Virus record (IMG/VR): IMGVR_UViG_3300032288_005212
Coordinates: 42,085 to 106,084 of that record
Reading direction: 5' to 3' (one strand)
Source: an uncultured virus (IMG/VR IMGVR_UViG_3300032288_005212)
Taxonomy: Duplodnaviria > Heunggongvirae > Uroviricota > Caudoviricetes
DNA: 64,000 nt
How positions within the stretch are numbered: position 1 is the first letter of the stretch; each line of letters starts with the position of its first letter. Both the position numbers and the translations under genes were made by a program. Of this stretch, positions 16,612 through 64,000 are shown in pieces. A model generated the notes under the pieces. That model worked only from the letters and a program-made list of their open reading frames with translations. It was not told where the DNA came from and ran no database searches.

Positions 16612-16618
16612 GGCTATT

Positions 16619-17416: not shown

Positions 17417-18441
17417 AAAAAGTTCTGTTAACTGGTAGTGAAGGATTTATTGGTTCTTATATATGTAATGAATTATTGGATTACAACTATGTTGTAGTTG
17501 GGGTTGATAACTATTCTAAATATGGAAAAATTATTAGGCCACATAATTCCCATAAAAACTTTAAATTATATAATGAAGATATACTGTCTAGCAATTTCCT
17601 AAAAATAGTTAACAATGAAAAACCGGATATTATTATAGCTGGGGCAGCTATGATAGGCGGAATTTCCTATTTTCATAAATATGCTTATGACCTGTTAGCT
17701 ACAAATGAAAGAATACTAGCACAAACTTTTGATGCCGCAATATGTGGGCATAAAGAAGGCTGGCTCGAAAGAATAATTGTTATGTCTAGTTCTATGGTTT
17801 TTGAAGAGACGTCAATTTATCCTACCCCAGAAACAGAAATAAAGAAATGTCCCCCGCCTTCCTCTACTTATGGGTTTCAGAAGCTGGCATCCGAATATTT
17901 TGCAAAAGGGGCGTTTGAGCAATACGGATTACCTTATACAATACTTAGGCCTTTTAATTGTGTTGGTATTGGAGAGGAAGATTCAATATCAGAACATGAG
18001 GTTACATCTGGTAATATTAAATTATTGATGTCGCACGTTCTCCCAGATTTAGTTAATAAAATATTAAAAAAACAGTACCCATTACACATATTAGGAGACG
18101 GAGGCCAGGTTAGGTGTTACACTAATGGTGTAGACCTAGCAAGAGGCGTTAGGCTCGCTATTGAGTCTGATAAAGCCATAAATAATGATTTTAATTTATC
18201 TACAGAAGTATCTACTAGCGTCCTAGAATTGGCGGAGTTAATTTGGGAATTGATTAATCCAGAAAAACCTTTTAAATATGTTTCTGACGCTGCTTTTGAT
18301 TATGATGTTCAAAAAAGAATTCCAGACGTAAGCAAGGCTAGAGATATTTTAAATTTTGAGGCTAAAGTTTCCTTGGAGGAATCCGTTATAGAAGTTATAA
18401 ATTATATGAGTAAGAAGCATGAAAGAAATACAGTTATGTAA
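17413..18441 (+). CDS. NAD-dependent NDP-sugar epimerase/dehydratase (extended SDR)
   Basis: TGSEGFIG, AAMIGGI, SSSMVF, YGFQK, RPFN..G, GDG.Q.R. Confidence 0.92.
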   Translation: MKKVLLTGSEGFIGSYICNELLDYNYVVVGVDNYSKYGKIIRPHNSHKNFKLYNEDILSSNFLKIVNNEKPDIIIAGAAMIGGISYFHKYAYDLLATNERILAQTFDAAICGHKEGWLERIIVMSSSMVFEETSIYPTPETEIKKCPPPSSTYGFQKLASEYFAKGAFEQYGLPYTILRPFNCVGIGEEDSISEHEVTSGNIKLLMSHVLPDLVNKILKKQYPLHILGDGGQVRCYTNGVDLARGVRLAIESDKAINNDFNLSTEVSTSVLELAELIWELINPEKPFKYVSDAAFDYDVQKRIPDVSKARDILNFEAKVSLEESVIEVINYMSKKHERNTVM

Positions 18442-19078
18442 ATCAAAAATAAACGCTATAGACCTATACAGTATATACTGTCAAGTTGATACAGAAGGTA
18501 AATGGGCAGACGGCTGGAATAAATTTTTGAATGCTAAATCAGGGGAATGGCACGGCCACTATAAACTTTTAGCTTATTTATCAACTTTTTTTAGCCCAGG
18601 AGACACTTTATTAGATATAGGAACATTAACAGGAGCGTCTAGTCTAGCGCTGTCTTTTAACGAAACTGTAAAAGTTTATTCTTTTGATCTTGCCAAGCAA
18701 ACTTTTCATTCAGGAAACCCTGGTGATAGTAGGTACATTTATGAATCAGATGAGCAAGTGTTAGCAAAAAATACAAGAGAAAATATTACCTATATTGTAG
18801 GAGATTGTCTACAACATGGTAAATTATTACTAAACTCATCTTTAATATACGTCGATATAGACCATAGCGGAGAAATAGAGGCCAATATTTTGAATTTCTT
18901 GCACAGTAATAATTGGAGAGGTATAGTAATATTAGATGATATTTATTGGACAACTATGCAACCTCTTTGGAGCAGTATTCCTGAAAAAATGAAACTAGAC
19001 ATTAGTATCTACGGCAATGGCAAGGACGGAACAGGGCTCATTAACTTTGGAAATATTTATTCGGTGACCTATGAATAA
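18419..19078 (+). CDS. Class I SAM-dependent methyltransferase
   Basis: HYKLLAYLS, LLDIGT..GAS, YVDIDH, GIVILDDI. Confidence 0.8.
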   Translation: MKEIQLCKSKINAIDLYSIYCQVDTEGKWADGWNKFLNAKSGEWHGHYKLLAYLSTFFSPGDTLLDIGTLTGASSLALSFNETVKVYSFDLAKQTFHSGNPGDSRYIYESDEQVLAKNTRENITYIVGDCLQHGKLLLNSSLIYVDIDHSGEIEANILNFLHSNNWRGIVILDDIYWTTMQPLWSSIPEKMKLDISIYGNGKDGTGLINFGNIYSVTYE

Positions 19079-19427
19079 TATAAGCTATCTAATAGAACAA
19101 ATAATATTAAATTCTATACAAGAATATGACGGTACTTACGACTCTGACAATTCTTTTAAAGAACTAGTTTCGATAGGCGAATTGGTAGATAGATTGTCCA
19201 TAGTAAATTTTAAACTTTATAAATTAAAAGATGAAGTAATGATGAGACCAGAGGATACGAACTTTAAAGCGTGGGCGTCCACAGAAGATGTAAAATTAGT
19301 TATTGAAAGGTCAAGACTAAAAAAGTGCATAGATGAGAAATTAATTTTTATGATACACAAAATTTATAATAATGATTTTTTGGCAGGCTTTAACTCCGAA
19401 GTTAAAAAATACGGTAATCAAATATGA
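19071..19427 (+). CDS. Small helical protein of glycan gene clusters (DUF4254/DUF6165-like)
   Basis: SIGELVDRLSI...KL, ERS.LK..ID, EVK.YG. Confidence 0.5.
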   Translation: MNNISYLIEQIILNSIQEYDGTYDSDNSFKELVSIGELVDRLSIVNFKLYKLKDEVMMRPEDTNFKAWASTEDVKLVIERSRLKKCIDEKLIFMIHKIYNNDFLAGFNSEVKKYGNQI

Positions 19428-20449
19428 AGTGCTTAGTTATATTGGGGACTAGACCCGAAGCAATAAGGTTATACCATACTATAAAAGAACTTAATCCTTA
19501 CAAAATATTTTGGACAGGCCAAAATTTTTCCAAGAATTTAAGTACAGATATTATTCAAGATCCTAGATTTGATAATATTTATAAAGATATGGTATTGTCT
19601 TCTATAGAAGAAACAGATTTTTTTCAACAATTTACAAAAATGTTGTTAAATATCGATAGTTTTATAAAACAATGTAGCCCAGACAAAATTTTAATTCTAG
19701 GAGATACTAACTCTAGTTTAGCCGCTGCTTTAGCTGCTAAAAAGAATGATATTCCGTTATACCATATGGAAGCTGGGAATAGATGTTATAACCCCAAATC
19801 TCCGGAAGAGATTAATAGGAGAATGATAGATAGTATCGCTGACGTACATTTATGCTATACTAAATTCGCTAAACAAAACTTATTAAATGAAGGTGTGCCG
19901 CTAAATAAAATTCATGTAATTGGTAACCCAATGGCCGAGTTTCCAGAACTCCATTCATATGATACAAAAGAAAAAAGTCAGGTACTGGTTACTTTACATA
20001 GAAAAGAGAATGAAGAGTATTTACCGAATTTACTTAATTTTTTTAATAGTTTAAATTCTAAAGTCAAAGTTAAATTAGTATTACATCCAAGATATTATAA
20101 ATTTTTTACTGAAAAATTTACCGATGTGGTTCCAAGCGTAAACTTTTCTGATTTTGTAAAGTTACAGCAAGAGTCGAGCTTAATAATAACAGATTCTGGT
20201 ACCGTATGTGAAGAAGCCGCTATTCTTAAAAAACCTTGCCTAATAATAAGAGAAACAACAGAGAGACCAGAACTTTTAGAGTTAGGTAGCACAATTTTGG
20301 GGGATATAAAAAACACAGATAATCTATTAAGCAGCTCAGACGCTTTATTAAATTTAACACGAGACTGGGACTTACCAGATGAGTACAAGTATCAAAAAGT
20401 TTCTAAGAAAGTAAAAACTATTCTATTAAGTAAGCAAAACTATATATGA
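19424..20449 (+). CDS. Non-hydrolysing UDP-HexNAc 2-epimerase (WecB/FnlC/WbvD-like)
   Basis: GTRPEAI, TGQN, LGDTNS, HMEAGNR, PEEINR, TLHR.EN, TDSGTV.EE, TERPE. Confidence 0.93.
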   Translation: MKCLVILGTRPEAIRLYHTIKELNPYKIFWTGQNFSKNLSTDIIQDPRFDNIYKDMVLSSIEETDFFQQFTKMLLNIDSFIKQCSPDKILILGDTNSSLAAALAAKKNDIPLYHMEAGNRCYNPKSPEEINRRMIDSIADVHLCYTKFAKQNLLNEGVPLNKIHVIGNPMAEFPELHSYDTKEKSQVLVTLHRKENEEYLPNLLNFFNSLNSKVKVKLVLHPRYYKFFTEKFTDVVPSVNFSDFVKLQQESSLIITDSGTVCEEAAILKKPCLIIRETTERPELLELGSTILGDIKNTDNLLSSSDALLNLTRDWDLPDEYKYQKVSKKVKTILLSKQNYI

Positions 20450-21165
20450 TAAATTTACAAAAGTTAAGCCTAGAAGAACTTAGAGATAGTTTTACAACCT
20501 CTTACCCATTTAATTATTTGGTTCTGGATAATTTTCTTGAGGAGAAAATAGCGGACAGCATATTAAACGATTTAAATACTGATGACTATTCGACTTGGGA
20601 TAAGAGAGCCGATGCTGGAGTACAAGTAAAAGATCGTTCCAATTGGAAGAATGATGCGGATGTGCCGCAGTCTACAAGAAATTTAATTCAGTACTTAAAC
20701 TCAGGAGATTTTTTACGGTGGCTATCAGAAGCCACAGGCATTCAAGGAATTATTCCAGACCCGTATCTTACCGGAGGAGGGTTTAATAAAATTAATAGGG
20801 GCGGCACTCTTGCTATACACGCTGACGGTAATTGGCATGATTTGATGGCAGTACACCGCAGGCTTAATTTAATTATATACCTAAATAAAAATTGGTTGCC
20901 AGAATGGGGCGGCAATCTTGAGCTATGGTCTAATAAAGATAGTAGGCCAGATAAATGTGAAAAAGAAATTGAGCCTTATTTTAATAGGCTGGTATTATTT
21001 AAAACTGATGATTACAGTTTTCATGGCCACCCAAAGCAACTAAACTGCCCAGAAAATGTTTCAAGAAAATCTTTGATATTGTATTATTATACAAGCACCA
21101 GACCCAGTACAGAAGTTGAGTCTTTAGAGAATAAGCACAGAGCTATATTTCATAAATCCGTATAA
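20446..21165 (+). CDS. 2OG-Fe(II) oxygenase, prolyl-4-hydroxylase-like
   Basis: PF..LV.DNFL, GGG, HAD, RRLN..IYLN..W..EWGG.LELW, P.FNR.V.F, HGHP, RKS....YY. Confidence 0.9.
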   Translation: MINLQKLSLEELRDSFTTSYPFNYLVLDNFLEEKIADSILNDLNTDDYSTWDKRADAGVQVKDRSNWKNDADVPQSTRNLIQYLNSGDFLRWLSEATGIQGIIPDPYLTGGGFNKINRGGTLAIHADGNWHDLMAVHRRLNLIIYLNKNWLPEWGGNLELWSNKDSRPDKCEKEIEPYFNRLVLFKTDDYSFHGHPKQLNCPENVSRKSLILYYYTSTRPSTEVESLENKHRAIFHKSV

Positions 21166-21176
21166 GAGGAAAAATA

Positions 21177-22157
21177 ATGTTTAATAATTCTACTGTATTA
21201 ATAACTGGCGGCACTGGTTCTTGGGGTCAAACACTAACCACAAAATTAATTGAACTATATAGCCCTAAAAAAATTATTATATTTTCTAGGGGAGAATTAC
21301 AACAAGTATTAATGCAAAGAAAGTTTAATAATCCTATTATCCAATATATAATAGGAGACGTAAGAGACTATGAAGCTATAAAATTTGCTACACTTGGCGT
21401 AGATTATGTTTTTCACCTGGCTGCATTGAAACACGTTCCAATATGTGAAAATCAACCACAAGAAGCTATAAAAACTAATATAACAGGCACTACAAATGTT
21501 ATCAATGCAGCAATACTTAATAAAGTAAAAAAAGTAATAGATGTATCTACAGATAAAGCAGTAGACCCTATTAATTTATATGGTATGACAAAGGCTGTAG
21601 GAGAAAAAGCAATAATTCAAGCAAACGACCTCAGCTCGCATACAAAATTTGTATGCGTGCGCGGAGGAAACGTAATGGGATCAAACGGTAGTGTGATTCC
21701 ATTTTTCATAGAGCAGATTAAATCTGGCGGACCAATTACTATCACAGACTCCAATATGACTAGATTTTTCTTAACTTTAAATGAAGCTATTGGATTATTA
21801 TTTAAAGCAGCAGAAGATAGCATTGGAGGAGAAACATTTGTTATGAAAATGCCTTCTTGCTACATAGAAGATATCGCGTCTATCCTAATGCAAAAATACG
21901 GTATAGTGCCTATAAAGGATATCGGTATGAGGCCAGGGGAAAAGCTAGATGAAGTACTAATCTCAAAAAATGAGGCTAATCTATCTTACTGCTATGATGA
22001 TAATTACTATGTTATTCTACCAAATGTTTATAATAATTTGTTAAATGAGAAGTATTCTAACTTAGAAGTATTCCCTTACGAAGAATTTTCGTCAAGCACA
22101 TTTATCATGAACGACGAAGAAATCTCTTCTATGTTGTCTAAGGGAGGATTCCTGTGA
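21177..22157 (+). CDS. UDP-GlcNAc 4,6-dehydratase/5-epimerase (PseB/FnlA/CapE-like)
   Basis: TGGTGSWG, FSR.E..Q, GDVRD, HLAALKHVP, STDKA, YGMTK, R.GNV.GS.GSVIP, MTRF, G.RPGEKL.E. Confidence 0.93.
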   Translation: MFNNSTVLITGGTGSWGQTLTTKLIELYSPKKIIIFSRGELQQVLMQRKFNNPIIQYIIGDVRDYEAIKFATLGVDYVFHLAALKHVPICENQPQEAIKTNITGTTNVINAAILNKVKKVIDVSTDKAVDPINLYGMTKAVGEKAIIQANDLSSHTKFVCVRGGNVMGSNGSVIPFFIEQIKSGGPITITDSNMTRFFLTLNEAIGLLFKAAEDSIGGETFVMKMPSCYIEDIASILMQKYGIVPIKDIGMRPGEKLDEVLISKNEANLSYCYDDNYYVILPNVYNNLLNEKYSNLEVFPYEEFSSSTFIMNDEEISSMLSKGGFL

Positions 22158-22933
22158 GCATTTTAGTGTTGGGCGGGGAAGGTATGGCAGGTTGGATGAT
22201 CGGAAATTTCCTGTCTAGAAAACACTCTGTATTAGTAACTACACGAGCAGATTTTGATGTTGAGAAAAGTTTAAAGCTTCCTGCAGGGTTTGATTACATA
22301 GTAAATTGTATAGGACTACTTTTGAACGACTCTAAAATTAACCCTGCAAAAACAATGTATGTTAATTCCTATTTTCCAAAATACCTGGAAAGGTTCTATA
22401 GAGATAGCAATACTAAAATAATACATTTATCTACAGATTGTGTATTTAACGGTACCAAAGGAAATTATCTAGAAACAGATTTGCCAAATGAGCTTGGAGT
22501 ATATGGTTTGTCGAAGTCTCTAGGTGAGATAGATAATAATAAAGATTTAACTCTAAGGGTTAGCATTATAGGCCCAGAGATAAGGCATCCAAGCAAAAGA
22601 AGCGGGCTTTTAAATTGGATACTTACTACAAAAGAAACACAACTAAACGGCTGGGTAAATGCACATTGGAATGGGATTACAACTTTAGAATTAGCTAAGT
22701 GTATAGACCAGTTTATAAAAAACCCAATAATTAGTGGAATATATCACCCAACTAATGAAACTATAACTAAGTACGAATTGCTAAATAAAATAAATTATAA
22801 ATATAATTTGGGAAAAGTTATAGTAAAATCTAATGCAGAAAAAAATATTGATAAAACTTTGCGGAATACAAAAGGATTTTTTAACGTATCATCTTATGAT
22901 ACACAGTTGGAAGAATTAAGAGCGTATATATGA
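22154..22933 (+). CDS. RmlD-like NDP-4-keto-6-deoxyhexose reductase (WbvR-like)
   Basis: LG..GM.G, NCIG, HLSTDCVF.G..G.Y.E, YG.SK..GE, R.SIIG.E, W.G.TTLELA; no C-terminal cupin. Confidence 0.88.
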   Translation: MSILVLGGEGMAGWMIGNFLSRKHSVLVTTRADFDVEKSLKLPAGFDYIVNCIGLLLNDSKINPAKTMYVNSYFPKYLERFYRDSNTKIIHLSTDCVFNGTKGNYLETDLPNELGVYGLSKSLGEIDNNKDLTLRVSIIGPEIRHPSKRSGLLNWILTTKETQLNGWVNAHWNGITTLELAKCIDQFIKNPIISGIYHPTNETITKYELLNKINYKYNLGKVIVKSNAEKNIDKTLRNTKGFFNVSSYDTQLEELRAYI

Positions 22934-33154: not shown

Positions 33155-33161
33155 ACACTTT

Positions 33162-33329: not shown

Positions 33330-33424
33330 TAAATACGTTAGTTGCGCTAGTAATTTTATAGAATTCAGTATAATAGTATCAATGATTGGCGTTTGTGTCG
33401 CATCAATACTATTTATGTAATTCG

Positions 33425-33765: not shown

Positions 33766-33800
33766 TACAGCATCTACTGGTGCAGGCTTTAGGAGTATAT

Positions 33801-34148: not shown

Positions 34149-34159
34149 AGTACTAAAAA

Positions 34160-35247: not shown

Positions 35248-35268
35248 ATCTTGCCCTGGTCGGAGTGA

Positions 35269-35463: not shown

Positions 35464-35490
35464 GATTAAATTCTCTACTTTGAGGTTATT

Positions 35491-48000: not shown

Positions 48001-48156
48001 TATCGTAATTTCCTCAACTTGGTCGAGTGTTACCGATATACTTTCATCGCTAAGTGTTACAGGTATTTCCTGCACCACTAATCTTTTTGAAGGTACGGTC
48101 GTATCTGATTTTTTAATTATAATTACAGTTGATTTTTTTACTAATATGTTCGCCAT
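47998..48156 (-). CDS. 52-aa ORF MANILVKKSTV... (not in track)
   Basis: Overlaps the fibre gene stop and ends at the terminator. Confidence 0.45.
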   Translation of the reverse strand: MANILVKKSTVIIIKKSDTTVPSKRLVVQEIPVTLSDESISVTLDQVEEITI

Positions 48157-52942: not shown

Positions 52943-53545
52943 CTAGCTATATGGAGGCGTAATAGTCGCCTGTCCAAACTTATTTCTTTGATAGTAAAAG
53001 TCAACGCCAATTAAAAATGCAGGATCTGGAAATGTATCTTCAATGGAAGCACCGTCTCGAAAAATACGCATTAAAAATCTCATATTTGGTTCTGCTTGAT
53101 TTCCAGGAAATGGAGTACTGACAACTTGAAGATGCTTATACGCAACGCCATCCGCAGTTGCATTATAATATTCTGTAATTGGCGCAAAGAACGTACCATT
53201 TACAGTGGCTCCAATATAATCAATTCCCCAGCGTACTGTACCTGTTGCGGTGCTGTTGCCTGGAGACCAGTGAAAGGCCAAATAAAGATCCGTTCCAGTC
53301 GCCCAATCAAATGGAACATCCCAGTTTGTAAAACTTTCCATTGGTGCGTTTGACACATAAGAGTAGGCAACAAGATTTCCATAAAAAGGAGTTAATTCTG
53401 CGGGATTTCCAGAACCGTCACGAACAGAGGGTTCAAGACCGTCCATCATCCAAGCCGTATCTGTACGCCCTTTTAGATCGAGAAAGTTTCCATCAAGTTC
53501 CGCATATGTGAGAGCGGATCCTTTGCTTGCGCGTGTAATTATCAT
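52943..53545 (-). CDS. Virion fibre-associated protein
   Basis: N-terminal TRASKGSALTYAELDGNF motif typical of phage fibre proteins. Confidence 0.6.
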   Translation of the reverse strand: MIITRASKGSALTYAELDGNFLDLKGRTDTAWMMDGLEPSVRDGSGNPAELTPFYGNLVAYSYVSNAPMESFTNWDVPFDWATGTDLYLAFHWSPGNSTATGTVRWGIDYIGATVNGTFFAPITEYYNATADGVAYKHLQVVSTPFPGNQAEPNMRFLMRIFRDGASIEDTFPDPAFLIGVDFYYQRNKFGQATITPPYS

Positions 53546-54255
53546 ACTGCCCTCATTATATCAAACGAAACTGTTCCCAATGGCATTCCAGAGGAAAGAA
53601 AAGTTGAAAGATTTGGAATTGTAAATGTTGGAGAGACTGACGGACTGTAGGTCTGCATATTCAAAGTATAAGAAGATTTTCGAATTCTTGCAGATGTTCC
53701 GTTATTGAGATTGTAGCCAGAGACGGCTACTGCAGCTTGAGATGGAGATATTGAGTCATCTCCATCTACATTAATTATTTGATCTACGTTGCCAGTAAGC
53801 TCATTTGACCATGCGCCGAACGAATATGTACGATACTTAAAAGTTGCTGTTCCGTACGAACTTGTAATAAAGGTTCCATTCGAAAGACCAGTTACAATTT
53901 GACTATCAGTTGCAACTTTTTCCCACGTAATCTGCTCAATTGGGAAATTTGTAGTATCAATATAATCCCATCCAGTTTGAGGAGCGAGAGCAATTTCAAA
54001 CGTAGCTCTTGTATCAGTTTTTGTAAGAGTTGCGTTATTTCTTGTAAGGCTAAGATTTCGAGGCGCTAAATCAATTGCGTATGTTACAGGATCATTAATC
54101 GTAATCGAAAAAGCGCGAGTTTCAGCGGTTAATTTTCTTGTTGGTTTAAATGCAACAATTTTAAAATAATCAGACGCAAGAGTATTTACTAATGAATTAT
54201 CATTAGCAAGTAGAGATATTAATCTTCCACTAGTCTTACGATATCTGAATTTCAT
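53542..54255 (-). CDS. Putative virion protein with degenerate copies of the 22-aa repeat
   Basis: RKLTAETRAFSITIND and LSLTRNNATL match fibre repeat variants. Confidence 0.55.
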   Translation of the reverse strand: MKFRYRKTSGRLISLLANDNSLVNTLASDYFKIVAFKPTRKLTAETRAFSITINDPVTYAIDLAPRNLSLTRNNATLTKTDTRATFEIALAPQTGWDYIDTTNFPIEQITWEKVATDSQIVTGLSNGTFITSSYGTATFKYRTYSFGAWSNELTGNVDQIINVDGDDSISPSQAAVAVSGYNLNNGTSARIRKSSYTLNMQTYSPSVSPTFTIPNLSTFLSSGMPLGTVSFDIMRAV

Positions 54256-55061
54256 CCGTTAATTATATCAAATTCGAGATAAGGAGTTCCCGAAGACGTG
54301 CCATCTGGCTGTGATACCATCCAAAGAGCAGAATCAGCATAAATTTGTGGTGCGCCCATAATATCCCAACCTTGGGTATCTTGAGCATTTGCAACTCGAA
54401 TATCAAATCGTGCAAGTCGGCGAGCAATAATAATATTAAATGCTCCAGCAGATGCAACTGTACCGCCTACGGTTACAGATTCAATTTTTTGTACTCCACG
54501 ATCTCCCGCAGCAAGTGGAAGAGCAATAATTCTTGGAGTTGTAAATCCGTTTACTGATTGGGCGACTGGAACACTTCGACCAGTTGTTCCAGCTTCATTT
54601 GTATATGTTGCAGTGATTGTAGTTGCAGTTGCGGAAACAGTAGTCGTAAGTTCAATTAAAATTTCTACAAGCTCATAATCTGTTGCTGGAAGCCGGGCGG
54701 CAATTGAAGGCTGAGAAGAAAATGTAGTCGTTGCGAGAGTTGTAAGCGAGATTGCACCTGCACCCCAAATACGATCATATAGAATCATTCCTCCAGCCCT
54801 ATCATTAGAGAATTTCCCATTTGCAAGATAACCAGTTGCTCCGCCACCAAAAGCATTAATAGTTGGGCAACCAGCAGTTGCATCGGTAAATAATACACCT
54901 GTTGTGGTGTTGCCAACTGCAAGAGTACCTGCACCAGGGTTTCCGTTTGCTGCAAATAAGCTAAAAGGCTGAGCGGCAACAGTAGTCACCGTACCGGTTT
55001 TTAGCATTAATACTCTTTGTTTTGAGGCTGCAAACCATCCGTCAACTGAACTAATCGCCAT
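54252..55061 (-). CDS. Putative virion structural protein (beta-rich)
   Basis: LYDRIW, TYTN.AGT.GR, PL.AGD.GV..I.S; in the late operon. Confidence 0.6.
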   Translation of the reverse strand: MAISSVDGWFAASKQRVLMLKTGTVTTVAAQPFSLFAANGNPGAGTLAVGNTTTGVLFTDATAGCPTINAFGGGATGYLANGKFSNDRAGGMILYDRIWGAGAISLTTLATTTFSSQPSIAARLPATDYELVEILIELTTTVSATATTITATYTNEAGTTGRSVPVAQSVNGFTTPRIIALPLAAGDRGVQKIESVTVGGTVASAGAFNIIIARRLARFDIRVANAQDTQGWDIMGAPQIYADSALWMVSQPDGTSSGTPYLEFDIING

Positions 55062-57489
55062 TGAAATTCTCCGTTAGATCTAAATTAACCGTACCAAATT
55101 TGATACCGCTTGAATAAAGTTGTGAAGGTGATGGAGCACTGAATGTTCCATTTGAATAAGTAATCATAGTAAATTTTGAACCCTGCCGTAGCTTTGCTCC
55201 AGTAATTGGAGAAAGGGCGAGGCCTGATATATTTAATCCTGTCTGATTAAGAGAAGCGTTAGAAGCAGAGATTATTTCTGGCCCTTGTTGCTGTAATATA
55301 TCTGGGTCACTTTGTACAATACTATTATTTGCGTAAAATTTATTTTTTTGATTTGTTGCAATATTTCGAAGCGTAATATTATCTAAATTTACTGTACCAG
55401 GCTGTTTAAGAGATAAAAATAGTTGATTATTTGCACCTACAATAAAATTAGCCGGACTAGAGCTATTATAAATATCAAAAGAATCTATATCAATTTTTTC
55501 TGTATTTGCAGCACTTACACTGCTAAAAAATAATTCTGTTTGTACAGGGTTTAATGGGTCACAATAAATTTTTATAGATCTAATTTTATTAGGGTATTCC
55601 CCTACTCTAGCTCTATATCCATCAAATTTTGTACGAGGCGAAACAATTAATTCAAAACTACCTAATGGTGAAACAGCAGTACTATTTATTGAATTACTAA
55701 CAGAACCTATTGCGATATTTGGACAAGTTATAAGAGTAGACGTCCCATAATCAACTGAGTAAAATCCTATATTAGTAGCGCCCTTAATAGTTGAATTACC
55801 TAAAATAGCATTAGTACCAGTGCCAAAACTTAAACTCGATTCGCAAAGAATATTATAATTATTAGTATATACATTTATAATATTAGAAGTTCTTGGAGAA
55901 AGGTTAAAATCATTATATACTGTAATTGAAGTAGAGCTTGATGGGCCTTGAGCGTTTATGTCTGATTGTAAATGTAAATCTGAAATTAAATTTGCTTTAA
56001 AATTATAAATTTTCATATTATTTAGATTTACATAGTGAGGAGATACTGCGGTATTTAAATAACCAGCAGCATCATGTAACGCAATAAAATCAAAACCAAT
56101 TGATCCAACAAAGGATAGTCCTGATAAATCAATATTACCTCCATAGACGCCACCACCAAGACTGAGTGAATACCAAAATTTTGTGCGATTTTGAGTATAT
56201 AAATTTTTACAAGACAAATAACCCAAATCAAAAAATAAATCGCCATCATAACTATTGTCATCAATAATTACAGTGTCATTATTATTTGGAAAATTTTCTC
56301 TATTTGGAGACCCGCCGGACGATAGGGCCCAAATATTATTAAGTTGCCATACTTCTCCACTAGAGTTTGGAGAAGCAACAAGATATACTGTTCTTGGGGA
56401 ATAAATAAAATTAACATTATCCGGCGGCTCGAATGAAGTATCTACATATCTATTATCTATACCGGAAAATTGATTTGGAGAAGTTGTATATACCCATGCA
56501 TACCGTATGTCTAAATGATTAAAATTTGAAATATTATTAACTTGTGTGGGATATGAACCAGTTAACTCAACATTTATTCTTTTATCATAATCTGTACCAA
56601 TAAAATTTAAATTAGTTATGATTGGAGACTGTGAAGTATCGTGGTAAAAAGTTGTAATGCTTCCATCAGGATCGTCCTGATAAGCGTATACATTTAAGTT
56701 ATTATTTATAGTTGTGGTAGTTCCAATATACCTTTCAAAATAGGCAAAAGAAGTTACGGGTTTTAAATTGATTTCTTTAAATGGGTTAGTATTGCCGCCC
56801 CAGTCTAAGTAATAACCTCCACTTAAATTTAATATAGGACTTCCAGTATAATTAGTGCCGTAATGTCTAAAAAATTGATCATTTATTGCGGCAGCGCTCA
56901 TAGGGCTCATAGTTATTGTAGAAGATCCAAAATTATAAAACCCGCTATTAAGATTACCTAGTTCAAGAGACTCCGACACTTCTATATTAAAATTATTAGT
57001 ATTTACAGTAGGGCTGCCATATATTGACATAGAGCCGCATCTTACATCGCTCAATAAATTTATTACCGATAGCGGGCTACCAGAATCAATTGCTATATAA
57101 TCTATATAGCAATTATTAAGTGATAGCTCTGGAGATGTAATAGATAAAGGATCTACGTCTAGTTTACTAATATTAGTTTCAAATAAATGTGGTGATGGGC
57201 ATAAAAATGATCCTACAACAAAAGTTCTTGGAATACCTCCGGTATTATTAGTAGTATAAGTTTCTAAACTTAACTTTTTATCTACAGCAGACGCATGAAA
57301 TAATCTTACTGTTTTTATTCCAAGACCCATTGACACAACAAAAGGCGACCCGGTATCAGAATTTGCATCAAAATAAACATCATCAGGGCTGGTCGGCACT
57401 GATGCGCCTCCAGCCCCGCCTGAAGTTGTTGACCATTTTAACGGATCATCCCAATTTCCTGATCCGCCAACCCAATACCTGTCAGCCAT
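55051..57489 (-). CDS. Putative beta-helix adhesin/tail-spike-like protein
   Basis: MADRYWVGGSGNW...WS..SGG.GGASVP...DDV.FD.NS N-terminus with a second internal copy; N/S/T-rich. Confidence 0.65.
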   Translation of the reverse strand: MADRYWVGGSGNWDDPLKWSTTSGGAGGASVPTSPDDVYFDANSDTGSPFVVSMGLGIKTVRLFHASAVDKKLSLETYTTNNTGGIPRTFVVGSFLCPSPHLFETNISKLDVDPLSITSPELSLNNCYIDYIAIDSGSPLSVINLLSDVRCGSMSIYGSPTVNTNNFNIEVSESLELGNLNSGFYNFGSSTITMSPMSAAAINDQFFRHYGTNYTGSPILNLSGGYYLDWGGNTNPFKEINLKPVTSFAYFERYIGTTTTINNNLNVYAYQDDPDGSITTFYHDTSQSPIITNLNFIGTDYDKRINVELTGSYPTQVNNISNFNHLDIRYAWVYTTSPNQFSGIDNRYVDTSFEPPDNVNFIYSPRTVYLVASPNSSGEVWQLNNIWALSSGGSPNRENFPNNNDTVIIDDNSYDGDLFFDLGYLSCKNLYTQNRTKFWYSLSLGGGVYGGNIDLSGLSFVGSIGFDFIALHDAAGYLNTAVSPHYVNLNNMKIYNFKANLISDLHLQSDINAQGPSSSTSITVYNDFNLSPRTSNIINVYTNNYNILCESSLSFGTGTNAILGNSTIKGATNIGFYSVDYGTSTLITCPNIAIGSVSNSINSTAVSPLGSFELIVSPRTKFDGYRARVGEYPNKIRSIKIYCDPLNPVQTELFFSSVSAANTEKIDIDSFDIYNSSSPANFIVGANNQLFLSLKQPGTVNLDNITLRNIATNQKNKFYANNSIVQSDPDILQQQGPEIISASNASLNQTGLNISGLALSPITGAKLRQGSKFTMITYSNGTFSAPSPSQLYSSGIKFGTVNLDLTENFNGD

Positions 57490-57490
57490 T

Positions 57491-57919
57491 TTAAGCCAGA
57501 GTTAACAAACCATTTGCCTGATCAAAGTCAAGAGTTAATGTTTCGCCAGTTGCAAGAGTAATGGAAGAGCCATAATCGTACCAGCCAATTAATGCATCAA
57601 CTGGTGAAACTGCTGTATCGTTGTATATTACAACATATCTGAACGGCCCCACAGAACCGTTAGCCGCAGTAATTGTATTGTCACCAACTGTTAATTTATA
57701 TGTACCAGAAGTTTGTGCAGAGCTTGAAGGTGAAAGAATTAGACTCGAAGTAGGGGAAACGTTAGTAGTGGAAACTACTGTTAAATCAGCCAACACACTA
57801 TTTGTAGCAAGAGGCGCTGGAGACTCAACAAGAGCAACTCTTAGTGTGTCAGAGCCAAGATTATGTGTTTTTTCTGCAAGATGCTCTACGAAAGCATTAA
57901 ATTTATTAAATGTAGCCAT
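57491..57919 (-). CDS. Small virion/fibre subunit
   Basis: MATFNKFNAF...HNLGSDTL.VAL, GPFRYVVIYND, LIGWYDYG..ITL..GE. Confidence 0.65.
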   Translation of the reverse strand: MATFNKFNAFVEHLAEKTHNLGSDTLRVALVESPAPLATNSVLADLTVVSTTNVSPTSSLILSPSSSAQTSGTYKLTVGDNTITAANGSVGPFRYVVIYNDTAVSPVDALIGWYDYGSSITLATGETLTLDFDQANGLLTLA

Positions 57920-57929
57920 TTATATCTCC

Positions 57930-59459
57930 TTAGGTTGTATCTACCCAAAGTGCACCAATAGAAGGACTCGTAGGTGCCGTTGAGCTTACTGTGATTATTG
58001 AATATCTTCCATCAAGATTTACTGTCGCTCCAGCAGAGCCAACACCACTTAGAGTAAGATTTCCTGTCGATGAGTTAAAACTACCAGTATTAATATAAGA
58101 GTCAGACCCTGATTCTAATAAAGTGGTAGCAGTTGATTGACGTGAATATATTTCACTTACTGAAATAATATGAACTTTTGCATTGTTTGCATACCCGTTT
58201 TGAGTCTGTAATACAATTTTATACATTGGAACCATTTCGGGAAATGGTAATCCATAATTTACAAAAGTTTCAGCAAGAGCATCTTTTTCTGTCGCGTGCT
58301 CTACAGAACCCATTAATAACTTAATGGGATACTGGCTATCATTTGTAGCCAATAACCAGTATGATACAAACTTTCCATTTCCTACTTCTACTAAACTTCC
58401 ACTTCCAGAAGTAATTGAGTTATAAGCCGCTCGGCTTCCTATACTTGCTGGAACCCATGGATCAGAAGAAGGAGTACTTTGTGTATAGTTTGTACCGGTT
58501 AAATAAAGAACAGGTATTACTGCATTTGAATTTATTATCTGCTGATAATGCCCTGCCGGACTCGCTGCATGAGTAATCGAATGAACTAAATCCTCATCCG
58601 CTACTGTAATGTTTGATAGGCCAAGAGATACTGTATTACTATTGAGTGTATAGCTAATATCTCCGCCGTTTCTCCACACAGCTCCAATATTAAGATGCTG
58701 TGCAAGATGCCAATTTGTATCCCTCGAAGAAGAATGTCTCTCATCTCCAAGTATAATTGCCGAAGACCCATTCCAATAAACATATGCAACTAAAAGATCA
58801 TCGATTATTGATGGAGTTGCTCCAACCACTCCTTCCTCTAAAAGGTAAGTAGTTGGATTAAACTTGATATATCTCCCGCCAGGCGTATTTGTAATTACAA
58901 GAGTCTTTGTTGTATCTGTAGTAATTCGCTTTCCGCGATAATATACATTAAAGCTAGTACCTGTTGGAAAAAGAGAAAAAGTTCTAGTGCCGGCATTAAA
59001 AGAATAATCCGAATCAACTAGATTCGGAAATCCTGTCATATCTTTGGTAATGTCTCCTACAGTCTCTCTTGAATAATTATCAACAGCTCCTCCCGAAAAA
59101 GGTGCTGTTATAGTTACATCTTTTACTACCTTTACTTTTCCGATAAGTAGTGTAGTAACTTCATTTGCAGCATTTACTTCTTGAAGATCGTAAAAGTAAG
59201 TTTTCGATTCAAGAGTTATGGTCTCTTCTGGAGCGACCATAATTGTAAGAATACCCAAAGCAGCATTTGGAGAACCTGCAGTTGCTGGTCCAATTTGAAG
59301 TGCTGCATCAGCATCTGTATCATCTATGTTCGACTTAAGAGTAAGCCAGTATTCGTTTCCTGTAATATTTTCGGGTGCGCCAGCGGAAGTCTGAATATTA
59401 AATGTTAATATCCAGGTATCTCCGCGTACTTGATTATCAAGATTTTTTTCCGTATACAT
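57930..59459 (-). CDS. Fibre/baseplate protein with N-terminal adaptor (BppU/collar-like) domain
   Basis: RGDT...TLK...YFYDLQ...GKVKVVKDVT; C-terminal VSSTAP.SP..G.LWVDT. Confidence 0.6.
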   Translation of the reverse strand: MYTEKNLDNQVRGDTWILTFNIQTSAGAPENITGNEYWLTLKSNIDDTDADAALQIGPATAGSPNAALGILTIMVAPEETITLESKTYFYDLQEVNAANEVTTLLIGKVKVVKDVTITAPFSGGAVDNYSRETVGDITKDMTGFPNLVDSDYSFNAGTRTFSLFPTGTSFNVYYRGKRITTDTTKTLVITNTPGGRYIKFNPTTYLLEEGVVGATPSIIDDLLVAYVYWNGSSAIILGDERHSSSRDTNWHLAQHLNIGAVWRNGGDISYTLNSNTVSLGLSNITVADEDLVHSITHAASPAGHYQQIINSNAVIPVLYLTGTNYTQSTPSSDPWVPASIGSRAAYNSITSGSGSLVEVGNGKFVSYWLLATNDSQYPIKLLMGSVEHATEKDALAETFVNYGLPFPEMVPMYKIVLQTQNGYANNAKVHIISVSEIYSRQSTATTLLESGSDSYINTGSFNSSTGNLTLSGVGSAGATVNLDGRYSIITVSSTAPTSPSIGALWVDTT

Positions 59460-59815
59460 TAGGTACTTCTAGTCACATCTTTTACTACCTTTACTTTTCC
59501 AAGTAAAATGGTTTTAATAATTGGTGGAGAAGATGTATCTGCCTGCTGAACATCATAGTTATATGTTTGAGCAGTGATGTTTGTAGAGGCGTGCGGTACG
59601 TTAATGTAAACGATACCATTTGTGGCATTAACTCCAGAAGCTACAGTACTAACCTGTAGCTGACCTGGGTCTGAAGAATCTATATCACTTTTTAGTGTAA
59701 ACCAATAAGTATAATTAGTGATATTTACTATTGAATTGTTTTCTGTGACGGTAAGTTTTATTGACCAGTCATCTCCGCGAACTAGCGGATTTAAATCTTT
59801 TGCTGTATAAGACAT
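59459..59815 (-). CDS. Collar/adaptor protein, paralog of the 57930-59459 N-terminus
   Basis: RGDDW...TLKS.ID..D...Y.YDVQ...GKVKVVKDVT; position of T5 p132. Confidence 0.6.
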   Translation of the reverse strand: MSYTAKDLNPLVRGDDWSIKLTVTENNSIVNITNYTYWFTLKSDIDSSDPGQLQVSTVASGVNATNGIVYINVPHASTNITAQTYNYDVQQADTSSPPIIKTILLGKVKVVKDVTRST

Positions 59816-59864
59816 AGATTTTCCTATCTAGCTCGCTCAAATCGTAGAGCTTTAAATTATACAA

Positions 59865-59893
59865 ATTATATCAGTCGAGGACCAAATTGTCAA
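59865..59893 (-). promoter_or_regulatory. Promoter for the fibre cassette
   Basis: TTGACA-17 nt-TATAAT on the minus strand. Confidence 0.88.
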
Positions 59894-59910
59894 GTTTTAT
59901 TTTTTGGAGG

Positions 59911-60330
59911 TTAACTGGTACAAAAATTATGCTGATCTATTCGAATAGTGCGCTTACAAAAAGTCTTTTTCCAGAATGGATTTGCTTTTCGTGGATTATA
60001 ATAATAATAAGAATCCTTTACGAGATTTTGGTACTTTCCGAGTAGTACATTTTTTGCCACTTCTTCACTGATTTTCCATTCTTCGAGATCGATTGGTTTT
60101 GTAGAAGTACAAGACCAACTAAACTGGCAGGTCTCATAAACAACTTCACAAATAGTTTTTGGAAAGTCAGGATGTTGCAGTCGATTAAGAGTAACATAAC
60201 CAACTGCAATTTTTCCTGCTTCCATCTCTCCTCTTGCTTCGTGATAGATATTCTGCGTGAGGCAGAAAGTTTGAAATTTGTCCGAAGCATTTACAGAAAT
60301 TGAAAATAATAAAAGAAATAATAATCTCAT
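59911..60330 (-). CDS. SleB-like cell wall hydrolase with signal peptide
   Basis: CL..NIYHEARGE...G..AV..V..NR...FP.TICEVV....QFSW, H.F. Confidence 0.92.
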   Translation of the reverse strand: MRLLFLLLFSISVNASDKFQTFCLTQNIYHEARGEMEAGKIAVGYVTLNRLQHPDFPKTICEVVYETCQFSWSCTSTKPIDLEEWKISEEVAKNVLLGKYQNLVKDSYYYYNPRKANPFWKKTFCKRTIRIDQHNFCTS

Positions 60331-63300
60331 GCAAGATTTCCTAAACGTACACGAAGAACACCTGCTGCATATATATCAATTCTATTGTTAGTGGCATCCA
60401 TAAATATTCCAGAAACTCCACCAGCTGGGCTTGCTTTAAGGCTAGATATTGCTAATTGAGTAGTAGTTATAGCATTTGCGGCAATTACCCCAGTCTTTAA
60501 GTAACTTGTTTCTTGTATCCAAGCAGTCGAAGCAGGACTATACCTCCAAGCTGTTTGAGACGGAGTTGCAGCACTATTTTCTACTATAGCACTATAACCT
60601 AATTCGGGACTAACGACTTCACCACTACTTGGAGGCCCTAAGTTTGCCCCAGCAGTACCTGTCCCAGTCCCCGTTCCTGATCTTTTAAAGAAATAAAATC
60701 CTGGACCACCCTGAGGTCCGGTGGCGCCGTCTGTGCCATCAATACCATCAATACCATTAGTACCACTTTTTGATTTAGAAAATTTTTGTGTTTTTGTTAA
60801 AGAAAAAGAAGTGCCAGTACTTGTTTTTCCCGTTATAGTAAATGTAGCTGTAGAAGTATCAGTACCAGAAGCCACCCCAGCTGTATAATTATAACTTACA
60901 TAAGTTGTAAAGTTATTTAAAGTTGGAATAGTTATATTAGTTCCTACAGCAGATACAGTCCAAGTACCAGCAGTAGTTCCTAAACCATTATAAGTTAATA
61001 AGTTTGCACCTTCATATACACGTATTTCTGTTCCAGAATTTGTATAAGTGCTAACAGCTCCTGTACTGCTTGCTGGAAACACATGAGATTCATTTGATAA
61101 AGTAGCAACTACAGCATTTGAAGCAGAGTTTACAACTGCCACTCCCTGCTCATCTAATTTAGTAGTAAATCCTCCAGCAGCATATAATTCTGCTTTTATA
61201 GAAGTACACCCAGAAGTAGGAGTATACACAGTACTAGATTCATTAACACTACTTGCGTATGATTCCGTGCCAGAACCGTTTTCGTATATTTTAAATCTTC
61301 CTGCATATGCTGATGCAGCGGCTATTCCTACCTGTGAAAAAGAAGAAAAAGTTACCGAAGTTGGAGTAAAAGTATTTGCATCATTTTTAGCTAAAGCAGC
61401 TACACTAGATGTTAGCCAATAGGAAGTAGATGAAGCTCCGTCCTGTGCAATTAATCTTGCTGGACTTGTCCATTCTCCAATTGGTATAAAGTCTGTTGGA
61501 CTATTTTGTGCTGCAGTAGCTTGAATTGCCCATAAATAAGCTCCTCCAGTAATAGGAACTTCTGGACTCCAAGCAGAAGGTTGATTAGTAATAGCTCCGG
61601 TACTAAAAGTATAAGTAGCAGTAGCAGGAGTTGTACCTACTGCTGGAGCTGTTGAAGTACCTGTTCTTTGATATAGAAGAACTGTAGCTACGTTTAAGCC
61701 ATTTGTACCATCATTTCCATTCTGAGATAATAATACCGGTGAAGTCCATTCAGTACTTAATACTTGATCAGTATTAGTAGTTGAACTAGCAGTAGCTACA
61801 GTTACATATAATGGGCTTGTTCCAGTTGGAATAGTTTTAGACCATCCATTAGACAATGTTGTAGTAATAGAAGGAGTGGGGGAGAAACTATAATCTACCG
61901 TTCCTGGATTATCTGTTGGTGCTACGTTAACTCTTTTATAGGCATATATTTGGGCTGTATTGGCACCAGAAGTACCAGAAGTACCATCCTGTGCTATTAA
62001 TCTTGCTGGGCTTGCCCACTCTCCTATGCCAATAGTATCTGTTGGACTATTTTGTGCTGCGGTAGCTTGAATTGCCCATAAATAAGCTCCTCCAGTAATA
62101 GGAACTTGAGGACTCCACCCAGAAGGAGGATTTGCTACATCTCCACTACTAAAAGTATAAGTAGCAGTAGCAGGAGTTGTACCTACTGCTGGAGCTGTTG
62201 AAGTACCTGTTCTTTGATATAAAAATACTGTAGCAGTATTTAATCCATTAATTCCATTAGTACCATCGGTACCGGACAGCAAAACAGGGCTACTCCATTC
62301 ACCACTAGATATTTGATCTGTAAGGCTAGTTGAAAGTGCGGAAGCTACAGTTACATACAGCGGACTAGTCCCGCTTGGAATAGTTTTAGACCAACCGTTT
62401 GATAAAGTAACTGGTGAAGTTATAGATGATGAAGAAAAAGTATATTCTATATTTCCAGGATTATCTGTAGGGGCTATATTTACTCTCTTATAAGCGTATA
62501 CTTGAGCATTATTTGACCCTGCAGCACCAGCAGCACCATTTTGAGATATTAACCTAGCTGGGCTTGCCCATTCACCAACATTTATTACATCCGTTGGAGA
62601 GTTTGAAGCAGCTGTAGCTTGAATTGCCCATAAATAATCTCCACCACTGATAGGCACTGAAGTTGTCCACCCTGTGGGAGGACTTGCAATATTACCACTA
62701 GCAAAAGTATATATAGTATTAGCAGGACTTGTACCTACTGCTGGAACTATACTATTAGTTGTTCTCTGGTACAATAATACTGTAGCAGTATTTAAACCAT
62801 CAAGACCACTTTGACTTAATAATACTGGAGAAGACCATTCTGTACTTAATATTTGATCTGTATTAGTTGATGACAAAGCGGAAGCTATTGTAACATATAA
62901 TGGACTTGTTCCAGTTGGAATAGTTTTAGACCAGCCATTTGATAAAGTAACTGGTGAAGTTATTGAGGGTGTCGGAGAAAAAGAATACTCTACATTTCCT
63001 GGGTTATCTGTAGGAGCTGAACTTACTCTTTTGTAGGCATATACTTGAGTAATATTATTTCCACTAACTCCTGGGGTTCCATTTTGAGATATTAGTCTTG
63101 CTGGGCTTGCCCACTCTCCTATGCCAATAGTGTCTGTTGGACTATTTTGTGCTGCAGTAGCTTGAATTGCCCATAAATAATCTCCACCAGAAATAGGAAT
63201 AGTAGAACTCCAACCACTTGGTTCATTAGTAACAACCCCACTACTAAAAGTATAAGTAGCAGTAGCAGGAGTTGTACCTACTGCTGGAGCTGTTGAAGTA

Positions 63301-64000
63301 GTAGTTCTTTGATATAAAAATACTGTAGCACTATTTAAGCCATCTAAACCATTTTGAGTTAGCAATACTGGAGAAGACCATTCTGTACTTAATATTTGAT
63401 CTGTTGGAGTATCTGATAATGCTGTTGCTATTGTTACATATAGCGGATTAGTGCCGCTTGGAATAGTTTTAGACCAATTATTTGCTAAAGTAACTGGGGA
63501 AACAATTGTAGCGGTAGGAGAAAAAGAATACTCTACATTACCTGGGTTATCTGTAGGAGCTGGACTTACTCTTTTGTAGGCATATACTTGTGCAATATTT
63601 TTACCGGAAGCACCTACCGGACCAGCCTGAGCTATTAATTTAGCAGGACTTGCCCACTCTCCTATAGCTATAATATCGGTAGGTGAGGAAGAAATAGCTG
63701 TGGCTTGAGTAGCCCATAAATAATCTCCACCAGAAGCAGGAATACCTGGACTCCAACCAGTAGGTGGGCTTCCTAAAACACCAGTTGAAAAAGTATAAGT
63801 AGCAGTAGTTGGTGTAGAACCAATTGGTGGTGGAGTAGAGCTAGAAGTTTTTTGATATAAAAATACTGTGGCAGTACTTAATCCATCCAATCCATTTTGA
63901 GCTAGTAATACTGGTGTTGACCATTCTGTACTTAATATTTGATCCGTATTTGTAGTAGAATAAGCAGTAGCTGCAGTAACATATAATGGGTTACTCCCAC
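60327..64000 (-). CDS. Central tail fibre/host-specificity protein, 5' end beyond the window
   Basis: Frame stays open to 64000; alternating ~90-aa A/B repeats with Gly-X-Y linkers; gpJ-like C-terminus IDIYAAGVLRVRLGNL. Confidence 0.8.
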   Translation of the reverse strand, partial: GSNPLYVTAATAYSTTNTDQILSTEWSTPVLLAQNGLDGLSTATVFLYQKTSSSTPPPIGSTPTTATYTFSTGVLGSPPTGWSPGIPASGGDYLWATQATAISSSPTDIIAIGEWASPAKLIAQAGPVGASGKNIAQVYAYKRVSPAPTDNPGNVEYSFSPTATIVSPVTLANNWSKTIPSGTNPLYVTIATALSDTPTDQILSTEWSSPVLLTQNGLDGLNSATVFLYQRTTTSTAPAVGTTPATATYTFSSGVVTNEPSGWSSTIPISGGDYLWAIQATAAQNSPTDTIGIGEWASPARLISQNGTPGVSGNNITQVYAYKRVSSAPTDNPGNVEYSFSPTPSITSPVTLSNGWSKTIPTGTSPLYVTIASALSSTNTDQILSTEWSSPVLLSQSGLDGLNTATVLLYQRTTNSIVPAVGTSPANTIYTFASGNIASPPTGWTTSVPISGGDYLWAIQATAASNSPTDVINVGEWASPARLISQNGAAGAAGSNNAQVYAYKRVNIAPTDNPGNIEYTFSSSSITSPVTLSNGWSKTIPSGTSPLYVTVASALSTSLTDQISSGEWSSPVLLSGTDGTNGINGLNTATVFLYQRTGTSTAPAVGTTPATATYTFSSGDVANPPSGWSPQVPITGGAYLWAIQATAAQNSPTDTIGIGEWASPARLIAQDGTSGTSGANTAQIYAYKRVNVAPTDNPGTVDYSFSPTPSITTTLSNGWSKTIPTGTSPLYVTVATASSTTNTDQVLSTEWTSPVLLSQNGNDGTNGLNVATVLLYQRTGTSTAPAVGTTPATATYTFSTGAITNQPSAWSPEVPITGGAYLWAIQATAAQNSPTDFIPIGEWTSPARLIAQDGASSTSYWLTSSVAALAKNDANTFTPTSVTFSSFSQVGIAAASAYAGRFKIYENGSGTESYASSVNESSTVYTPTSGCTSIKAELYAAGGFTTKLDEQGVAVVNSASNAVVATLSNESHVFPASSTGAVSTYTNSGTEIRVYEGANLLTYNGLGTTAGTWTVSAVGTNITIPTLNNFTTYVSYNYTAGVASGTDTSTATFTITGKTSTGTSFSLTKTQKFSKSKSGTNGIDGIDGTDGATGPQGGPGFYFFKRSGTGTGTGTAGANLGPPSSGEVVSPELGYSAIVENSAATPSQTAWRYSPASTAWIQETSYLKTGVIAANAITTTQLAISSLKASPAGGVSGIFMDATNNRIDIYAAGVLRVRLGNLA

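Follow-up and report, generated by a model that had tools for sequence, protein, structure and literature searches.

We examined the last 64 kb (hereafter the window, positions 42,085 to 106,084) of a single 106,084-bp virus contig, IMG/VR record IMGVR_UViG_3300032288_005212, which comes from an uncultured freshwater T5-like phage whose own genome is labelled G000 below. In this phage several outer proteins of the virion, belonging to its tail and its decoration, carry a marked excess of the dipeptide Ser-Pro (SP), and it is this excess and its possible causes that are treated here. The T5-like character of the phage is seen in its DNA polymerase (759 aa), which is ~43% identical to T5-like phage polymerases, and in the order of its late genes, which runs large terminase, portal, major tail protein, tape measure and J-like hub; the major tail protein, or tail tube, matches phrog_3575 and occupies the position of a T5 pb6-like protein. 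The distal tail module lies on the minus strand and comprises a 1597-aa protein, open reading frames (ORFs) of 200, 237 and 269 aa, an 812-aa protein, a 142-aa protein, a phrog_1084 pair, an endolysin and a large repeat protein. The genes that bear most directly on the excess are listed below; positions are those of the window unless they are given as genome positions.

55051..57489, minus strand: 812-aa beta-rich protein, candidate tail fibre or receptor-binding protein; Ser precedes 20 of its 41 prolines, and Thr-Pro is absent
57491..57919, minus strand: 142-aa protein, phrog_644, encoded directly upstream of the 812-aa gene; four of its six prolines follow Ser
60327..64000, minus strand: central-fibre-like repeat protein whose frame runs past the window end; 33 SP and five tandem repeats of ~181 aa
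genome 26194-27729, outside the window, minus strand: 511-aa protein; 20 SP among 36 prolines
genome 15102-16304, outside the window: tail tube; 6 SP against 3.1 expected

We found that the SP excess is a real, selected and lineage-specific pattern of outer tail and decoration proteins. Each of the 147 ORFs of at least 60 aa in the genome was shuffled 2000 times, and four of them exceeded their shuffled counterparts at p < 0.005: the 812-aa ORF, which with 100 Ser and 41 Pro has 20 SP against 5.05 expected (p <= 0.0005), the 142-aa ORF (4 SP against 0.68 expected, p = 0.0035), the fibre ORF as called at 1187 aa (33 SP against 11 expected, p <= 0.0005) and the 511-aa ORF (20 SP against 4.4 expected). 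The J-like hub shows a weaker excess (18 SP against 11.0, p = 0.02), as does the tail tube, and the DNA polymerase, taken as a control, has one SP among its 26 prolines. An earlier note on this DNA had given hand counts for the 812-aa, 142-aa and fibre proteins and for the polymerase, all of which we reproduced; it had also called for observed/expected dipeptide statistics on each ORF, and these confirm the excess and extend it beyond the window to the 511-aa protein.

When the 812-, 142- and 511-aa proteins are pooled, 44 of their 83 prolines follow Ser against 10.2 expected (z = 10.6), which places SP first among ~400 dipeptides; the runner-up reaches z = 3.4. The excess has a direction and is specific for Ser. 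The reverse order, Pro-Ser, stands at expectation in the same pool (8 against 10.2), and Thr-Pro is its most depleted dipeptide (1 against 9.6). Expressed as the observed/expected ratio (O/E) for the residue before Pro, Ser has a value of 4.34 and Thr one of 0.11, compared with 1.13 for each in the rest of the proteome. Leu-Pro, Ile-Pro, Val-Pro and Ala-Pro are depleted alongside Thr-Pro, and the gain of SP together with these losses fits the conversion of other X-Pro sites into SP. Ser-Gly was considered as an alternative motif and dropped, as it is mildly raised, 1.3- to 1.7-fold, in some proteins. The excess is confined to virion proteins, and in the remaining 141 ORFs there is none: SP occurs there 80 times against 70.5 expected and ranks 68 of 400.

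That this pattern is a mutational, compositional or repeat artefact is extremely improbable. The serines of SP are encoded by TCT, TCA, TCG, TCC, AGC and AGT in proportions near overall Ser usage, and the prolines of SP in the six proteins examined use all four Pro codons, with CCC rare. Together with the unenriched Pro-Ser and the normal composition of the 141 other ORFs, this bears out the earlier note in its claim that the bias lies at the protein level and is not a DNA repeat. The fibre is the place where repetition does contribute, because 30 of its 33 SP lie within the five tandem repeats and are copies of one another; the number given in the earlier note therefore stands, and the independence of those sites does not. 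Nevertheless, the three complete repeat units remain significant when tested one at a time (5, 7 and 6 SP against ~2 expected; p = 0.04, 0.001 and 0.005), as do the non-repetitive proteins, and the 315-aa non-repeat C-terminus of the fibre is unenriched (3 SP against 1.4). In the 511-aa protein, shuffling within predicted loops and strands gave 5.0 SP on average and never more than 13, against the 20 observed, so that the sharing of loops by Ser and Pro cannot explain the excess.

The fibre gene itself appears to be cut by the ends of the contig. Its frame is open across the end-to-start join (genome 1-906), which yields a 1516-aa ORF with 44 SP whose initial M directly follows the J-like gene's stop codon. 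The fibre gene thus probably does not start at the TTG at 63890, and the contig is probably a circular permutation that interrupts the fibre gene.

Comparison with homologs indicates that SP was gained within this lineage. The 812-aa protein matched no Pfam or PHROG family, and no close relatives of it were found in the viral-contig search; the 119 distant homologs that were retrieved have its N-terminal motif, and in places longer stretches, in common with it. Among these, the median SP O/E is 1.0 and the maximum 2.76, and homologs of similar length hold about half as many prolines. The sole homolog from a cultured phage, Limnohabitans phage DC31, has 5 SP among 31 prolines and reads TSADD in place of TSPDD. 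The six phage homologs of the 142-aa protein (28-58% identity; from EBPR siphovirus 2, Pseudanabaena phage Pam1 and four spring-water phages) have 0-1 SP each, and in the 142-aa protein itself three SP out of four were gained in this lineage, two of them in place of a conserved GNGYTxGG loop; a sequence search of solved structures with this protein gave no match. In the T5-like coliphage saus132, Ser precedes none of the 15 prolines of the tail tube pb6, 1 of 34 in the baseplate hub pb3 and 2 of 35 in the straight fibre pb4.

Two side observations concern these proteins. The N-terminal ~40 aa of the 812-aa protein (57370-57489) recur at 55-79% identity at the start of many long proteins with beta-strand repeats; several of these are annotated as Bacteroidota proteins sorted by the type IX secretion system (Agriterribacter, Pedobacter, Saprospirales); the motif may reflect module exchange or may hint at the host. 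In the four spring-water phage records (L006 1360-1785, MW202742, and three sisters) the homolog of the 142-aa protein is named 'general glycosylation pathway protein', a name for which we saw no basis, and its gene lies just upstream of that for a pectate-lyase-like tailspike, the same position that the 142-aa gene holds upstream of the 812-aa gene.

The 511-aa protein has closer relatives. Its ten full-length homologs at 51-65% identity are all SP-rich (O/E 3.7-6.5); two remoter homologs, P0134 and P0135, have O/E values of 1.45 and 1.03, and all five same-locus homologs in related contigs (25-30% identity) lie at ~1. Each of the eleven family members carries 11-21 SP, and these fall at 44 distinct sites, of which 18 are found in one member, 8 in two, and 3 are invariant. 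Within the SP-rich clade, then, the number of sites is kept and their positions turn over. The family had no match among viral contigs, and metagenome contigs gave only two, of ~2 kb each, which leaves the SP-rich homologs without genomic context; a sequence search of solved structures with the family likewise gave no match.

Turnover is also seen in the J-like protein, whose 18 SP compare with 20 in its 58%-identical homolog (in contig L003), seven of them in common. Next to that homolog lies a fibre fragment of different architecture, in which 9 of 25 prolines nevertheless follow Ser. In the tail tube of G000, five of the six SP lie in one Ser/Pro-rich inserted loop, and when 12 tail-tube proteins from the lineage are aligned, nearly all SP fall within four inserted regions that are hypervariable, with almost none in the conserved core. 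We also note that one hypervariable loop in the tail tubes of G000, L074 and L079 is a Ser/Pro/Gly-rich low-complexity insert with 3-5 SP, and that L089 is a further relative with such loops. Besides the 511-aa protein, the motif is carried by both fibres, beta-rich and repeat, by the 142-aa partner of the former, by the J-like hub in its C-terminal part and by the tail tube in its variable loops.

Structural models place these dipeptides in loops. The model of the 511-aa protein (predicted local distance difference test score, pLDDT, 69.9) is a chain of FN3/Ig-like sandwiches, for which Foldseek returned strings of fibronectin type III domains and GhpA (E about 1e-7); 18 of its 20 SP lie in loops, and 11 of the 20 stand 0-3 residues before the next strand. 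The AlphaFold2 model of the 812-aa protein is poor (pLDDT 54.5), and in its better N-terminal third SP occupies short turns before or between strands. The earlier note had expected SP to map to exposed surface; for the 511-aa protein and the N-terminal part of the 812-aa protein the loop location holds, and surface exposure is read from the predicted secondary structure of the models rather than from computed solvent exposure. With this qualification, we take Ser-Pro to be a surface-loop motif that has been positively selected in the outer virion proteins of this phage clade and is specific to the lineage.

Such placement would also be expected if SP were simply a structural habit, that is, a turn or strand-capping dipeptide fixed in beta-rich tail loops, for example for stiffening or protease resistance, with no modification involved. 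We regard this as a serious contender, at less than even odds. SP at domain borders is common in the FN3/Ig-like sandwich fold, to which the 511-aa protein belongs, and the proximity of SP to the following strand in that protein and its place in between-strand turns of the 812-aa model agree with a capping role, as do domain-level motifs of the type VSPxITGQ that the J-like protein and its homolog have in common. Conservation within the 511-aa family points both ways: eleven sites, a quarter of the total, are present in at least eight of the eleven members, and Ser within SP is more conserved than other Ser (0.62 against 0.34), yet 26 of the 44 sites occur in only one or two members. The composition of the sites is less easily reconciled with it. 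Asp-Pro (O/E 1.23) and Asn-Pro (0.81) are not enriched, so that a generic turn preference fails to explain the SP excess, and Thr-Pro is strongly depleted. Moreover, homologs of the same fold lack the excess, and that unrelated folds should have acquired it together in a single phage points to an external cause common to them.

Three further entries complete the part of the distal tail module considered here.

48141-52934, minus strand: 1597-aa virion-module protein; 3 SP against 3.3, unenriched
53542..54255, minus strand: 237-aa virion-module protein; 3 SP against 1.1 expected (p = 0.08), weak and non-significant
distal tail module, minus strand: pair of 509 and 118 aa, phrog_1084

The Pfam matches of the 1597-aa protein are all weak and below cut-off; they are to an NLPC_P60 N-terminal stabilising domain and to the TcdB middle/C-terminal region (E = 0.0046).

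A possible outside cause is encoded elsewhere in the window, where an island of ~12 kb (11283-23613) holds genes for soluble sugar enzymes.

11283..11897, plus strand: first island gene, candidate glycosyltransferase with an MptE/Maf/WaaZ-like fold; PF01973 below cut-off, structure match
11890..12519, plus strand: GT8-family glycosyltransferase, the best conserved island gene; PF01501, E = 3.6e-6
12516..19427, plus strand: variable island middle; two GT2 transferases, methyltransferases, a UDP-sugar dehydrogenase, an epimerase and unknowns
19424..22933, plus strand: four-gene cassette (Pfam assignments); UDP-GlcNAc 2-epimerase-like protein, 2-oxoglutarate (2OG)-Fe(II) oxygenase, Polysacc_synt_2 dehydratase and RmlD-like reductase
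20446-21165, plus strand: the 2OG-Fe(II) oxygenase of the cassette; PF13640, E = 1.9e-16

The first of these proteins matches PF01973 with E = 2e-5 and 24.9 bits, against a cut-off of 34.6 bits, over residues 8-50 only, and a structure-atlas search matched it to PF01973 clusters with a TM-score of 0.83. Its gene is 51-78% identical in the related contigs G001, G007, G008, G009 and G011; the GT8 gene is 75% identical in G001 and 68-92% in G007-G011. The variable middle has no match in G001, and only scattered gene matches in the jumbo-phage contig G005. Among the Pfam matches of 20 proteins from the island and its flanks, several of which had no match at all, there was no NeuB-type synthase, no CMP-transferase family and no known hydroxyproline (Hyp) glycosyltransferase family. 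Membrane and export-machinery genes were likewise absent from the Pfam matches of the island, for which no transmembrane prediction was made.

We favour the reading that SP is a Ser-specific modification motif, most plausibly for O-glycosylation, with a probability that we put at a little over one in three. The cause acts on many unrelated virion proteins without regard to fold, which is most simply explained by a trans-acting factor that reads Ser-Pro. Selection for the number of SP, as would be expected of a sequon, agrees with the specificity for Ser, the purge of Thr-Pro and of hydrophobic residues before Pro, the lack of enrichment in Asp-Pro or Asn-Pro, and the shifting positions of the sites. 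On this reading, a Ser-specific enzyme acting in trans would recognize Ser before Pro and modify it while the virion is assembled in the cytoplasm. An O-glycosyltransferase of the 12-kb island is the likeliest candidate for this role, and the tail would thereby become coated with glycan. We infer the trans-acting enzyme, its being a glycosyltransferase and the gene that would encode it. Since the phage has soluble transferases, one of them a candidate with a Maf-like fold, and Maf proteins glycosylate flagellin in the cytoplasm, we rank Ser-O-glycosylation first, with the structural explanation close behind. It is somewhat less probable that SP is the acceptor sequon of a glycosylation system, Ser-specific and cytoplasmic, which is encoded by this phage clade itself and coats fibres, tube and Ig-like decoration proteins. 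In that case SP sites would come and go as do those of the glycan shields of animal viruses, and SP would be the first glycosylation sequon to be defined in any bacteriophage.

A number of observations weigh against Ser-specific modification, or against its tie to the island. Most known O-glycosyltransferases also accept Thr. Two ORFs of the capsid module are unenriched (0 SP in that of 475 aa, 2 SP in that of 652 aa), and the strand-proximal placement and the recurrent sites of the 511-aa family, described above, fit a structural cap. The remaining points come from relatives of the phage. Searches with the DNA polymerase, the terminase and the GT8 protein gave mostly short contigs, of which two alone, G001 (91.8 kb) and G007 (58 kb), contain tail genes together with a sugar block, and no relative with tail genes and without any sugar block was recovered, so that the comparison of co-occurrence is incomplete; ORFs in the related contigs, most of which are short fragments, were called by a crude longest-ORF rule. 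G001, whose polymerase is 76% identical, has only the MptE-like (52%) and GT8 (75%) proteins of the island in common with G000 and lacks PF13640. Its SP excess is about two-fold and is seen in two proteins only, a 4794-aa tail protein (35 SP against 17.5) and the tube (5 against 1.6), and its SP stands mostly in a G-S-P-D/E context, unlike the hydrophobic-S-P context of G000. G007 has an MptE-like protein at 59.5% identity, a GT8 protein at 67.6% and two PF13640 ORFs, and its seven tail proteins hold 19 SP against 13.0, none of them being individually significant.

The 4794-aa protein of G001 is encoded by a single ORF (23867-38251 of that contig, minus strand), where G000 has separate hub and fibre genes.

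The earlier note had proposed that SP serves as the acceptor for the phage's glycan operon, and had held that equally SP-rich homologs in phages lacking sugar genes would tell against this. The homologs proved to be SP-poor, and a search for PF01973 in five of the six phage records that hold the SP-poor homologs of the 142-aa protein gave no match in any of the five, so that by this criterion the proposal was not refuted. However, no positive tie to any island gene was found, and the link to the operon is not borne out, as the excess is weak in G001 and nowhere significant in G007 despite the conserved MptE-like and GT8 pair.

The hydroxyproline-linked variant of that proposal has been weakened further, and we consider it very unlikely. 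In this variant the proline of SP would be hydroxylated by the PF13640 oxygenase, and the resulting Hyp would be the residue on which the transferases assemble a glycan, much as in the SP glycomodules of plants and algae and in the cytoplasmic Skp1 pathway. The oxygenase does lie inside the island, and against solved structures it gave eight matches up to E = 1, four of them at E < 0.05. Seven of the eight are protein prolyl hydroxylases or putative hydroxylases, with E-values from 8e-6 to 0.6 that are mostly weak: OGFOD1 (8e-6), the prolyl-4-hydroxylase P4H alpha (1.2e-4), a putative hydroxylase, HIF-PHD, EGLN1/2 and one uncharacterised protein; the eighth is unrelated (E = 0.95). The Skp1 pathway uses GT8 and GT2 enzymes, as are found in the island. 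However, none of the 20 island and flank proteins matched a Hyp-glycosyltransferase family, and the genomic company of the oxygenase suggests another function. Its homologs at 58-60% identity occur in 14 viral contigs, and in the two of these that were analysed whole, the unrelated jumbo-phage contigs G005 (64416-70908) and G006 (16627-20247), the same four cassette genes stand in the same order at 35-73% identity, which suggests that the oxygenase has a role in a nucleotide-sugar pathway. A 2OG oxygenase inside such a pathway is unusual. Precedent for the chemistry exists in plants and Chlamydomonas, where (SP)n modules are hydroxylated and O-glycosylated (PMC6523594, PMC5552477).

The distribution of the excess speaks against this route. 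The two jumbo-phage contigs (197.6 and 281.7 kb; 72% and 80% complete) have no SP-enriched ORF, and their proteome totals lie slightly below expectation (117 SP against 121 and 206 against 221). G007, with two PF13640 ORFs, has no significant excess; conversely, G001 without PF13640 is enriched in two proteins, and in G008, where there is no PF13640 in the 36 kb seen, a partial fibre ORF (3-1250, plus strand, 415 aa, 20% Ser) has Ser before seven of its nine prolines. An association of the SP excess with the oxygenase is thus contradicted. Two further contigs, L079 (terminase 93% identical; tube with 6 SP against 2.6) and L156 (island with a GT8 gene 91% identical and no PF13640), have the same sample code, 3300031758, and similar divergence; judged by these, they may be pieces of one phage, which would then be SP-enriched without the oxygenase.

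As the pattern is lineage-wide, extends over several folds and does not follow the conserved island genes, an external and possibly host factor would fit it too. The SP-specific cause might act in trans from outside the island, as a cytoplasmic modifying enzyme of the host, as a prolyl isomerase or chaperone on which fibre folding depends, or through avoidance of a host or environmental protease specific for Thr-Pro or hydrophobic-Pro; in the last case the strong avoidance of Thr-Pro, Leu-Pro and Ile-Pro could reflect avoidance as much as attraction to SP. We consider a cause of this kind rather unlikely.

Glycosylation of phage virions is itself already known from mycobacteriophages. In the literature that we searched, neither a Ser-Pro sequon nor glycosylation of hydroxyproline is described for a phage. 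If SP does mark modification sites, the glycosylation of virions would occur not only in actinobacteriophages but also in freshwater phages, which are abundant; glycan-coated tails would become predictable from sequence by means of a simple searchable sequon, and the masking or tuning of receptor-binding organelles by phages would become easier to study. If the dipeptide is instead purely structural, the lineage has recast the loops of many virion proteins that are unrelated to one another, all at the same time, which would caution against taking dipeptide biases for sequons. Either way, the prediction is directly testable by mass spectrometry on small proteins, namely the 142-aa protein and the tail-tube loop.

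Three known systems invite comparison with modification of Ser-Pro. The first is found in plants and green algae, whose Ser-Pro glycomodules undergo Hyp-O-glycosylation (PMC6523594, PMC5552477, PMC11252719). As in that system, Ser-Pro is the unit here, and a gene putatively of the prolyl-4-hydroxylase family adjoins sugar enzymes. Whereas the plant and algal repeats are clustered or contiguous and lie in secreted, extended proteins, the phage SP are single and dispersed, in loops of folded beta-domains that are assembled in the cytoplasm; the sole cluster in this phage is the tail-tube insert with five SP, and clustered or contiguous SP or SPP repeats are otherwise absent. Moreover, the phage oxygenase does not co-occur with the SP excess.

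The second is the Maf system, in which flagellin is glycosylated on many Ser/Thr in the cytoplasm before export (PMC4065374, PMC3426422). The likeness lies in the proposed cytoplasmic O-glycosylation of an exposed domain of a polymerising structural protein, and in the MptE/Maf-like fold of the first island gene. The systems differ in that no genes for nonulosonic-acid synthesis or CMP-activation were matched here and the phage gene lies below the Pfam cut-off; furthermore, the flagellin sites include Thr and follow no Ser-Pro rule.

The third, and the only one from phages, is the O-glycosylation of virions in the mycobacteriophages Che8, Corndog and Myrna (Freeman et al. 2023, Cell Host Microbe, as cited in PMC12619734). 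According to that source, the glycans there have been demonstrated chemically and are borne by capsid and tube subunits at their C-terminal ends. In contrast with what is quoted of that system, the case made here is drawn from sequence, the capsid module is unenriched, the candidate sites lie in internal loops and the candidate signal is strictly Ser-Pro. With the mycobacteriophages, as they are presented in that source, the present phage shares phage-encoded soluble glycosyltransferases without export machinery, as judged from Pfam matches, and outer virion proteins as the presumed targets; and here too the tail tube bears lineage-specific, exposed Ser-rich segments.

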